64,000 nt of DNA from an uncultured Candidatus Rokubacteria bacterium. Its GTDB lineage: Bacteria > Methylomirabilota > Methylomirabilia > Rokubacteriales > CSP1-6. Below the pieces are notes generated by a model that did not search any database, was not told the DNA's origin, and worked only from the letters and a program-made list of their open reading frames with translations. A program made the translations under genes and the position numbers. The DNA is taken from contig CAVYTA010000006.1 in NCBI GenBank assembly GCA_963771355.1, positions 384,001 through 448,000 on the forward strand, read 5' to 3'. This document shows, one piece after another, positions 16,584 to 26,103 of this stretch (the stretch's first letter is position 1; the number at the start of each line of letters is the position of its first letter).

Positions 16584-17700
16584 TCAGGCGCGAAAGGCCG
16601 CGTGCTCCACCGTCCACTGCTCGAGGAGACTGGGATCGGGCTCCTGCGCGATCCCCGGCACCTGGGAGACGGCGACCTCGCCCGGGCCGCTGAGCACGAT
16701 CTCGGGCTTGCCGAGATCGTCATTGTAGAAGTACGACGAGGGGAAGATGTCACCCGGATAGGTGAAGTTGGGCAGGGTGGCGAGCTCGGCGCAGATGGCG
16801 CCGCCCACCGCGCTCTCGAGCATGCCGCCCACCCAGCAGGGGATGCCGTGCTCGGCGCAGAGGGCCTGGATCTCGCGCGAGGCGGTGAGGCCGCCCACGC
16901 GCCCCATCTTGATATTGACCACCTTGCAGCTCCCCAGACGGATGGCCGCCCGCACATGGGCGAGGCTCTGCGCGCTCTCGTCGAGACAGACCGGCGTCTC
17001 GAGCTGGCGCTGGAGATCGGCGTGATTCACCAGGCTCATGCCGTCGTCCTCGAGCGGCTGCTCGATCATGGCCAGCCCATGGCGGTCCAGGGCGCGGAAG
17101 AGCTCGAGGTCGGCGAGCGTATAGGCGGCATTGCAGTCCACGTGGAAGGTGAAGCGCGGAAAGGTGGCGCGCACCGCCTCCACCATCTTGAGGTCCCAGC
17201 CCGGGGCGGAACTTGAGCTTGATCCGCGGGAAGCCCGCGTCGATCGCGCCCTGGATCTTGGCGAGCAGGATGTCGAAGGAGTCCTGGACCCCGAAGTCCG
17301 CGCCCACCTTCACGCGATCGCCCGTTCCGCCGAGCGCCGCGTGCAGCGGCAGGCCCCGGCGCTTGGCGTCCAGCACCCACCAGGCGATGTCCAGCGCGGC
17401 GCGCGCGAACTCGTTGCCCTTGATGAAGGCGATGCGATCGAGGAGGTCGCGCGAGGTCTCGAGATCCTGGCCGATGAGGCGCGGGGCCATGTACTCCCGC
17501 ACGGTGTGAAAGGCGGCGAGGGTGTGCTCCGACGAGTAGTTGGGGATGAGCACGGGGCAGCTCTCGCCCCAGGCATGCTGCCCGCCGCCTTCCATGCGCA
17601 CGAGGATGGTGTCGCTGTGGAGCTGGTCGCCATAGGACGTCTTCCAGACGAAGGCCAGGGGCAGCTTGGCCCAGTACACGTCGATGCGCTCGATCTTCAT
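16584..17700 (-). CDS. menC: o-succinylbenzoate synthase / N-acylamino acid racemase (enolase superfamily); +1 frameshift at 17200-17202
   Basis: KLK, VDCN..Y, IEQP, CLDES, NIK..RVGG and GGMLES motifs split across two frames; removing one C at 17200-17202 restores KFRPGWDLKMVEA. Confidence 0.82.
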
Positions 17701-17765
17701 GGGGTTCCCTCGCATGCCGCGGGATGATACCGCGGCGCCGCGCGCGGTGGTAGACTGCGGCGCCG

Positions 17766-22611: not shown

Positions 22612-22672
22612 GAGAACCCGCGCCAGGGTACCATCGGCGGGCGGAGTCGACATCGAGTTCAGGAGGGGCGCC

Positions 22673-23773
22673 ATGGTGACGCTGTTGACGGAGCGGGGCG
22701 AGCGGACGGTGGCGGAGGCGCGCGGCGAGGGGGACCATCTCTGGCTCGCCGCCTCCGAGATGGAGGCGGCCACGGGCTGGGAGGTGCAGCCGGAGGGGCT
22801 GTGCCATGGCGCGGCCTGCGTGCCGTGGCCGGCGGGCCGCGAGGCCGAGCTGGTCCGCGACGGTCGCGTGGAGGTGGGCGCCTTCTGGCGTCACCTCGGC
22901 AAGCCCGCCGCGCATAGCGCGGCCGGCGACGTCTGGGTGCTGGGCGAGGGGGCGGGCGAGCGCGCGGAGGCGCTGCGCTCGCTGCAGGCGCCGGACTTCA
23001 GCCTGCCCGACCCGAGCGGAACCATGCACTCGCTGTCCGAGCTGCGCGGCAAGAAGGTGCTGCTGGTCTCCTGGGCGTCCTGGTGAGGGTGCCGGCGCGA
23101 CCTGCCCGTGTGGCAGGCGCTCTACGAGGAGCTGCGGGACCAGAACTTCACGGTGGTGGCCGTCGCCATGGACAGCCGGCCCGCCGATCCGCTGCCGTGG
23201 ATCGAGGCGGCTCGACCTACCTACCTGACCCTGATAGACCGTGACCACCGCCTGGCCGACCTCTACAACATGGTGAACGTTCCCGAAGCGGTGTGGATCG
23301 ACGAGGATGGACGCATCGTCCGGCCCCCCGAGCCGGCCGGCTCCTACGAGGGCTTCCGCCAGATGAATCGGCAGACCAAGGAGATGCCGGAGGAGGCGGC
23401 CCGCCTCACCGCCCAGGCCAAGGCGACCTATGTCGACGCCATCCGCGACTGGGTGCGGAACGGCCCGCGCAGCGAGCACGCGCTCGATGCCCGGCGCGCC
23501 TTCGCCCACGTGAAGGCGCCCGACGACAACGCGGCGCGCGCCCACGTCGCCTTCCGACTCGGGCAGTATCTGATCCGCGCCGGGCGATCGGACGAGGGCC
23601 GGCGCTGGCTGGCGGAGGCGAGCCGCCTGCACCCGGAGTCCTGGTGCATCTGGCGCCAGCAGGCGGGCGTCAACGAGACGGGGCTCGCGTCGCTGCCGGA
23701 ATTCTGGGAGCGAGTGGACGCGCTCGGGGAGAAGCGTTATTACCCCGCGATCGACATGCACGGCATGCCATGA
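22673..23773 (+). CDS. Selenoprotein: UGC-motif peroxiredoxin/TlpA-like thioredoxin-fold protein (Sec138), 366 aa
   Basis: ORFs 22556-23086 and 23108-23773 are in one frame separated only by TGA 23084-23086; read-through gives APDFSLPD..GKKVLLVSWASW-U-GCRRDLPVWQALYEEL..NVPEAVWIDEDGRIV; SD AGGAGG at 22661-22666; hairpin downstream. Confidence 0.9.
23094..23122 (+). promoter_or_regulatory. Bacterial SECIS-like hairpin
   Basis: GCG(23097-99), bulged A, CCTGCC(23101-06), loop CGTGT, GGCAGG(23112-17), CGC(23118-20); the stem starts at the 11th nt after the UGA and the loop at the 21st, with G at loop position 2. Confidence 0.75.
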
Positions 23774-24659: not shown

Positions 24660-26103
24660 ATGGCGGACGTGCGTCGCGTTGCGATCAAGGCGCCTTATGT
24701 GCTGGCCCACGACGGCCGGGCGCATCGCCTGCTCCGCGATGGGGTGGTGGTGGTGGAGGGGGATCGCGTGCTGTCCGTGGGACCACGCTTCGAGGGCCGG
24801 GTGGACGAGACGGTGGACGCCGCCGATCGCATCGTGACCCCGGGCCTCATCTCCACCCATGCGCACATGGCGGGCTCTCCGCTCGACCGCTCGTTCATCG
24901 AGGACCGCGGCAACCCGCAGTTCTTCTACTCCGGCCTCTTCGAGATGCTGCCCGTCCGCGCCGAGGCCCAGGACGAGGAGGCCAGCCGGGCGTGCATCGA
25001 CTTCTCCATGGCCGAGCTGCTGCGCGGCGGGGTGACCACGGTCATGGAGATCGGGCCCATCGGGGAGTACGTGGTCGAGCGCGCCGCCCACTACGGCCTG
25101 CGCGTCTACCTCGGGCCTGGGCTTCCGCTCCGGCCGCTGGCTCACGCGCGACGGGAAGCGTGTCGAGTGGGAGTGGAACGAGGAGGCGGGGCGCCAGGGG
25201 CTGCGCCGCGCGGTGGACTTTCACGCCAAGCACGACGGGGCCCACGGTGACCTCGTGCGCTGCTTCTTCGCGCCGGCCCAGATCGATACCTGCACCGCCG
25301 AGCTGCTGAAGGACGCGAAGCGCTGGGCGGACGAGACGAGGCGCCCCTATCAGGTGCACACCTCCCAGTCCGTGGTCGAGTTCAACGAGATGCTGAGCCG
25401 CCACGGCAAGACCCCCATCGCCTGGATGCAAGAGCTGGGGGTGCTGGGCCCCAGCACCATCCTGGGCCACGCCATCATCGTGGGCGGCTCCTCGTGGACC
25501 AACTACCCGGCGGGCGACGTGGACATCATGGCCGACTCCGGCTGCTCGGTGGCGCACGCGGTGTGGGTGTTCGCGCGGCGCGGCGTCGCCATGGAGTCAT
25601 TCGGCCGCTACCGCGCGGCCGGCATCAACATGTCGCTCGGCACCGACACCAATCCCCAGAGCGTGATCGAGGCCATGCGCTGGGCCGCGGTGGTGTCCAA
25701 GATGATGGAGCGGAACACGGAGTCCACCACCGCCGCCCACGTCTTCGACGCGGCCACCCTCGGCGGGGCCCGGGCGCTGGGCCGGGACGATCTCGGGCGC
25801 ATCGCGCCCGGCGCCAAGGCGGACCTGGTGCTGTGGAGGGCGCGGTCCTGGCGCATGACGCCGCTCCGCGACCCGATCAAGAACATCGTCTACAACGCCA
25901 CCGACGAGGATATCGACCGCGTCTATGTGAATGGGCGCTTGGTGGTGGACGGAGGCCGGGTGCTGGCCGCCGACGAGCGCGCCATCCTCGCCGCGCTCCA
26001 GGCGGGCGGGGATCGCATGTGGCCGCGCATGGCCAAGTCCGACTGGGCGGGTCGGGGCGCCGACACGCTCTCGCCCCCCACCTATCCCGACTGGGAGCGC
26101 TAG
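24660..26103 (+). CDS. Metal-dependent amidohydrolase (chlorohydrolase/deaminase family); +1 frameshift at 25113-25115
   Basis: PGLISTHAH, QVHTSQ, LGHA, LGTDT, AT.GGARALG and GRIAPGAKADLV motifs; removing one G restores YLGLGFRSGRW. Confidence 0.85.

Follow-up and report, generated by a model that had tools for sequence, protein, structure and literature searches.

The locus described here lies in the window, by which we mean the whole 64,000-nucleotide stretch of Candidatus Rokubacteria DNA that was analysed, and consists of a single 366-codon frame that runs from ATG 22673 to TGA 23771-73 and carries one internal TGA, at 23084-86 (codon 138), in the residue context W-A-S-W-U-G-C (Table 1). 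Gene calling with translation table 11 turns this frame into two ORFs, one ending at 23086 and the other starting at GTG 23108, and the resulting pieces of 137 aa and 221 aa are both without the active site. The original prediction held that the two ORFs share one frame split by this TGA, that the seven codons between them (GCRRDLP) are open, that the second ORF lacks a Shine-Dalgarno (SD) sequence and that read-through gives 366 aa. Each of these statements was borne out, and no SD-like run was found before GTG 23108. GC3 is 0.96 before the TGA and 0.91 after it, and both halves are coding-like.

Table 1. Coordinates of the UGC gene and its features in the window
Feature	Position	Strand	Description
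Shine-Dalgarno-like AGGAGG	22661..22666	+	6 nt before ATG 22673; from sequence
Whole gene	22673..23773	+	366 aa, Sec at codon 138 (predicted); NF041054 WAxxUGC_long
N-terminal domain, ~aa 1-97	22673..22963	+	Invariant Cys44 (22802-04) and Cys49 (22817-19); no Pfam family
ResA/TlpA-type thioredoxin-fold domain, ~aa 100-264	22970..23464	+	Structure and Pfam matches
U-G-C active-site motif	23084..23092	+	TGA = Sec138 (predicted), GGG = Gly139, TGC = Cys140
Bacterial SECIS-like hairpin	23097..23120	+	Core stem 23101-06/23112-17, loop CGUGU 23107-11
TPR-like helical C-terminal part, ~aa 285-330	23525..23662	+	AlphaFold helices; Pfam TPR_2 E 0.046, below cut-off

In an ATGA (23770-23773), the stop codon of the gene overlaps the start codon of the gene that follows, an NAD-dependent epimerase/dehydratase, an arrangement conserved in just one same-genus relative, and a MetE-like gene lies divergently upstream. 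Promoter and terminator scans returned no sigma-70-like site and one terminator-like site, the latter inside the downstream gene; neither count departs from chance. Elsewhere in the window, an enolase-superfamily gene (MenC-like by eye; 16584-17715, minus strand) and an amidohydrolase gene (24660-26103, plus strand) each contain one frame change, near 17190 and 25115 respectively, which are probably assembly indels.

Decoding of the internal UGA

The two frames very likely constitute one gene, whose internal UGA would be decoded as selenocysteine. A homologue was present in 28 of 40 relatives (one of the 40, an unpublished genome, enters denominators only), and codon 138 was TGA in all 30 loci taken from relatives, a set in which our own locus and one duplicate are counted. 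In the best 80 GTDB loci the codon was TGA in 77 and TGC in 2, with no motif match in the remaining one; TAA or TAG occurred in none of the 80. The TGA is kept down to 52% identity and in several phyla, Alpha- and Betaproteobacteria included. The nearest named records, at 66-70% identity, belong to Rokubacteria/Methylomirabilota, which makes a soil Rokubacterium the probable host. At the protein level, 71 of the best 120 matches are full length (72 when one unmatched sequence is counted), and C-G-C was read in 71/72; 49 of these 120 are tail fragments, all starting at the Val or Met of the SECIS loop. The original prediction had named Cys or TGA at this codon as what to look for in homologues, and what was found is either a single Cys protein or a TGA at the same codon.

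A true stop at codon 138, whether through a pseudogene, a sequencing error or two separate proteins, would be in keeping with the indel-type breaks seen elsewhere in the assembly (in selA and the two window genes above) and with the fact that databases carry the halves as separate proteins. Against it stand the conservation of TGA, and never TAA or TAG, over that phylogenetic range and the DNA contigs: those of all five DNA runs examined, which come from five studies (one possibly the source of the assembly), bridge codon 138 with no other letter listed. None of the three outcomes that the original prediction had named as refuting it was encountered: a genome lacking Sec machinery (see below), TGC or TGG in the sequenced DNA, and homologues that are consistently two proteins. 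Furthermore, a split would sever the thioredoxin fold, falling after strand 128-134 and before helix 139-157 of the AlphaFold model, and would remove the motif, and the second ORF, without an SD sequence, would begin in the SECIS loop. The true-stop reading is thus already largely refuted, and we regard it as extremely improbable. Contigs of three RNA runs contained short pieces only and were unable to show transcription.

Selenocysteine insertion depends on a ternary complex of SelB, GTP and Sec-tRNA, which binds a hairpin just 3' of the UGA. Very probably this is the mechanism by which Sec would be inserted at codon 138. The hairpin core, CCUGCC/GGCAGG around the loop CGUGU, occupies 23101-23117, that is, +15 to +31 after the UGA, and with a bulged A the stem reaches +11 to +34 in the centroid fold. 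The hairpin had been said to begin at the 11th nucleotide, which is correct for the extended stem, the core beginning at +15. The GTG in its loop (23108) is the false start chosen by the gene callers.

The published bSECIS constraints, taken from the accessible portion of PMC13188914, are a loop of 3-9 nt, a stem of 4-16 bp, a G in the first two loop positions, a spacing of 16-37 nt and an energy of -7.5 kcal/mol or lower. Evaluated with an in-house script rather than bSECISearch, the hairpin lies within all of these limits, having a 5-nt loop (CGUGU), a 6-bp stem, a spacing of 20 and an energy of -9.3 kcal/mol. Its folding energy is unremarkable against shuffles (z = -0.22, 0.02 and -0.73) and ordinary for DNA of 70% GC, and 7,896 of the 118,203 TGA triplets in the genome (6.7%) satisfy a simplified SECIS filter. 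Support for the hairpin comes from the comparison of relatives and not from stability.

For this comparison, 77 Sec genes were set against 120 Cys genes, 118 of them from a metagenome pattern scan demanding D-L-x-x-W and two from GTDB; the Cys set is the more distant (43% identity vs 60.5%), and the relatives are not independent. In a fixed test, at least five stem pairs had to close a loop of 5 nt at a spacing of 20 nt from the codon, with loop position 2 occupied by G and position 3 by G or U; 77/77 Sec genes and 24/120 Cys genes passed it. Synonymous codon choice is skewed as well: Leu is CTG or TTG in 77/77 Sec genes (background 0.60) and in 75/120 Cys genes (background 0.53), and in the Sec genes Pro is CCC in 50/57 (background 0.36), Ser is TCC in 20/20 (background 0.20) and Val is GTG in 68/75 (background 0.52). 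Pairing of the 6-bp stem amounts to 96.3% across 67 distinct rows, as compared with 30-66% for slid controls, and double-sided changes number 16. The 6-bp stem also occurs in 33/120 Cys genes because the D-L-P-x-W-Q protein sequence forces part of it. The bare stem reaches -7.5 kcal/mol or lower in 41/77 Sec genes only, and in many relatives the minimum free energy structure is a competing fold. The Sec-versus-Cys comparison provides a clean case of a SECIS element constraining synonymous codons.

The original prediction also implied selA, selB, selC and selD elsewhere in the genome (5.53 Mb, 99.8% complete), and all four are present above their cut-offs. Profile searches gave 367 bits for selB (cut-off 242), 555 for selA (cut-off 268) and 266 for selD (cut-off 125), and tRNA-Sec scored 69 against an Rfam gathering score of 47; a 5-kb stretch of contig C7 contains selC, selA and selB. 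The selA gene (C7:113015-114392) is frameshifted in the assembly, being broken after about codon 69, near 113216-113235. This is probably an assembly indel, given that other assemblies encode full-length SelA proteins (481-483 aa) whose C-terminal part is 97-99% identical and that two window genes are similarly broken. Among the relatives, selA was found in 32/40 and in 24/28 of those carrying the TGA gene; the four in which it was not found are 67-96% complete. In the selD gene (contig C4, ~224130-226260, plus strand), the SelD part is preceded by a long fused N-terminal region, which appears by eye to be FAD-dependent oxidoreductase-like; the gene has Cys in CGGC and no internal TGA.

Decoding without selenium, by genome-wide reassignment of UGA to Trp or Gly or by its reading as Cys, would accommodate the Cys found at codon 138 in homologues. 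We consider it extremely unlikely: the UGC gene and its neighbour both terminate in TGA, every Trp of the UGC gene is TGG, and the sole UCA tRNA reported by ARAGORN is tRNA-Sec(UCA), the tRNA-Trp having the anticodon CCA.

Family membership and domain organization

Scored with C in place of U, the protein reaches the NCBIfam model NF041054, "ResA-like WAxxUGC motif-containing protein", with 300.2 bits (cut-off 300, E 2.3e-89), residues 25-361 aligning to positions 8-353 of the 354-position profile. The margin over the cut-off is just 0.2 bit, with close Cys homologues lying between 276 and 301; the next NCBIfam family is ResA, at 63.7 bits against a cut-off of 170. A UGC-containing Prx-like selenoprotein family, which the original prediction had named, has indeed been in print since 2008: the part of the GOS survey available to us lists 46 Sec sequences and 855 Cys homologues under "Prx-like (UGC-containing)", and sequences in its supplement show an upstream CxxxxCxP, W-x-S-W-U-G-C, NVP and a helical tail (PMC2398784). 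Judging from motif and architecture, we infer that the NCBIfam model and the published names refer to one family. The protein shares with this family the motif and the length class, and nothing of substance sets it apart beyond a score that sits at the cut-off. It is highly probable that the locus is one Sec gene encoding a 366-aa member of the WAxxUGC (UGC-containing TlpA/ResA-like) family, likely a cytoplasmic disulfide reductase.

The literature search, in which most subscription papers were beyond reach, returned no functional study or enzyme data for the family and nothing under the name WAxxUGC. Rokubacteria combined with selenocysteine gave no on-topic title, and term searches of two 2026 papers, PMC13326102 among them, did not find Rokubacteria named.

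The AlphaFold model (mean pLDDT 94.6, pTM 0.92) has three parts. The central part most resembles DsbE-like 3gl3 (Z 15.4, rmsd 2.0, 139 residues aligned) and ResA 2f9s (Z 14.6, rmsd 2.3, 137 aligned), and Foldseek matched ResA/TlpA/DsbE-type proteins at E 1.7e-11. Peroxiredoxins match the same fold with Z 11-12, and the "Prx-like" label therefore did not survive the structure matches, which indicate a ResA/TlpA-like fold and not a peroxiredoxin. U138 is modelled in the nucleophile position. Invariant in 72/72 sequences are U/C138, G139, C140, R141 and N202-V-P204, the last forming an NVP loop (23276-84) at what we take to be the usual cis-Pro position. Alignment to CxxC-containing TlpA paralogues leaves a one-residue gap in the motif, so that U-G-C corresponds to a CxxC shortened by one residue.

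A CxxxxC domain at the N-terminus and a TPR-like C-terminus had been proposed as extras of this copy. The sequence GLCHGAACVP, with C44 and C49, is present as described, and helices are modelled at 285-302, 306-319 and 324-330. Neither part is extra, however: since NF041054 spans residues 25-361 and the GOS sequences share both, they are family-wide. C44 and C49 are invariant in 72/72 sequences, with both retained in 56/59 distant representatives covering the positions, and they fall on the two strands (42-45 and 48-51) of a predicted beta-hairpin. For the N-terminal domain (aa 1-97), Pfam gave no family for the query and scattered weak matches in 40 aligned members. Its best fold match is weak (5h3k, Z 6.1, rmsd 3.7, 87 aligned), the N-domain of the Caf1A/FimD ushers matches at Z 4.5-4.9, and Foldseek returned nothing at E 0.001. 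The fold searches gave no match to a redox fold and none to the copper-amine-oxidase stalk or DsbD-N fold, either of which the domain might still adopt, and the Atlas look-alikes are unnamed.

A second WAxxUGC paralogue, with TGA and CxxxxC, was observed at C6:2501516-2502556 (minus strand). It is 42% identical to the UGC protein, scores 262 bits with NF041054, which is below the cut-off, and has a hairpin at the same spacing with the loop GGUCU.

The UGC gene is an additional member of a family catalogued since 2008, and its description is chiefly an annotation fix for a gene that gene callers split into 137-aa and 221-aa pieces.

Other candidate selenoproteins in the genome

An unfiltered genome-wide motif scan was too noisy, and a codon score was added as a filter, after which 28 genomic TGA sites passed both the hairpin test and the coding score on both sides. 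Twenty read-through candidates were picked by eye; 18 of them, as partial windows with one above cut-off, match NCBIfam redox families (BCP/Prx, UGSC, AhpD/YciW, DsbA/G, TlpA/ResA, SelL-like, rhodanese and PDO), and the other two match Pfam OsmC and CoA_trans. About 20 further selenoproteins are candidates in this genome.

One of them, at C7:248490-249224 (plus strand), is a gene resembling subunit A of CoA-transferases (Pfam CoA_trans, E 1e-7); it has an in-frame TGA at 248670, in the context H-[ST]-U-P, and a GGC-loop hairpin. The TGA is present in 13/13 close orthologues (47-92% identity; the unpublished genome left out), and the same position is Asn in 10/10 distant paralogues. No NCBIfam selenoprotein model covers this gene, a selenoprotein of this type is absent from the accessible part of a 2026 review, and the literature search gave no on-topic title. 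On these sequence grounds we regard it as a candidate uncatalogued selenoprotein and as a more interesting lead than the UGC gene.

Possible function of the U-G-C site

We moderately favour a role for the UGC protein as a disulfide reductase of the cytoplasm, in which Sec138 makes the attack and Cys140 acts as the resolving residue. In such a reaction Sec138, located where the active-site helix begins and in the position of the attacking Cys of ResA/TlpA, would attack a substrate disulfide or mixed disulfide, and Cys140 would resolve the intermediate to give a Sec138-Cys140 selenenylsulfide. The invariant Cys44/Cys49 pair of the hairpin may then re-reduce the site as an internal relay, with the TPR-like helices helping to bind a partner; these latter two elements are suggested only tentatively. 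The ResA/TlpA/DsbE proteins share with the UGC protein the thioredoxin fold and a nucleophile placed after W-A-[ST]-W. They differ in having CxxC in place of U-G-C and a membrane anchor, whereas the UGC protein contains no signal peptide, hydrophobic or membrane segment, has additional N- and C-terminal domains and falls far below the family cut-offs (63.7 vs 170 for ResA, and 56.2 vs 230).

Reduction of hydroperoxides by Sec138, with Cys140 or Cys44/Cys49 as resolving residues, would make the protein a selenoprotein peroxidase instead. Selenocysteine suits peroxide chemistry, the best Pfam match is AhpC-TSA (E 7e-19), and the fold is shared with peroxiredoxins such as BCP/PrxQ and AhpE. The peroxidatic motif of peroxiredoxins, PxxxT/SxxC, is nonetheless absent, since its P would fall on L131 and its T/S on A135, which stand 7 and 3 residues before U138; the NCBIfam BCP model gives 20 bits against a cut-off of 140, and ResA, DsbE and TlpA outrank peroxiredoxins among the structure matches. 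Membership of the peroxiredoxins was accordingly rejected, and peroxidase activity appears quite improbable.

By analogy, Sec138 alone might strip a low-molecular-weight thiol from S-thiolated proteins in the manner of a bacilliredoxin or glutaredoxin, Cys140 being secondary. The precedent is the redox-active CGC motif of BrxA and BrxB, which, according to the part of PMC8945050 available to us, de-bacillithiolate Gap, MetE and OhrR. The likeness is to the three-residue C-G-C (U-G-C here, C-G-C in homologues) and is a functional analogy only, the UGC protein being much larger and composed of three domains. The divergent MetE-like gene upstream would fit such a role, but it recurs in 1/109 loci, that of a same-genus relative. 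Additionally, no Brx family matched in NCBIfam (E up to 1) or Pfam (E up to 0.1), and C140 is invariant. We therefore hold this activity to be unlikely.

The remainder of the neighbourhood is no more conserved. Each of the eight window neighbours examined is found again in 0-3 of 109 loci. In the 80 GTDB loci no other cluster occurs in more than 13, the most frequent being a luciferase-like monooxygenase, an ABC ATPase and a glyoxalase. The fusion partners seen when 23 of 150 representatives were scanned amounted to generic multi-Trx proteins and a single MFS fragment. Because neighbours are not conserved, gene neighbourhood was rejected as a clue to function, and the locus offers no special handle on the function of the U-G-C or the N-terminal dithiol.

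For the N-terminal pair, a structural or metal-binding role without electron transfer, the thioredoxin domain being recycled by an outside reductant, is conceivable, although we would not assume it. It would agree with the lack of any redox-fold match for the N-terminal domain and with an apparent signal peptide, seen by eye, in a few distant homologues (P0141, P0148 and P0150), where a structural hairpin disulfide is therefore possible. The UGC protein itself, with neither signal peptide nor hydrophobic segment, is a less expected place for a purely structural disulfide, and the near invariance of C44 and C49 also speaks against this role.

Returning to disulfide reduction, a further and more doubtful extension is that the WAxxUGC family as a whole constitutes a self-contained relay, in which the cross-strand Cys44/Cys49 dithiol would pass electrons to a strained Sec-Gly-Cys and the TPR-like helices would select the client. 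If true, this relay would represent an undescribed reductase architecture that is widespread in soil bacteria and has been masked by split annotation.
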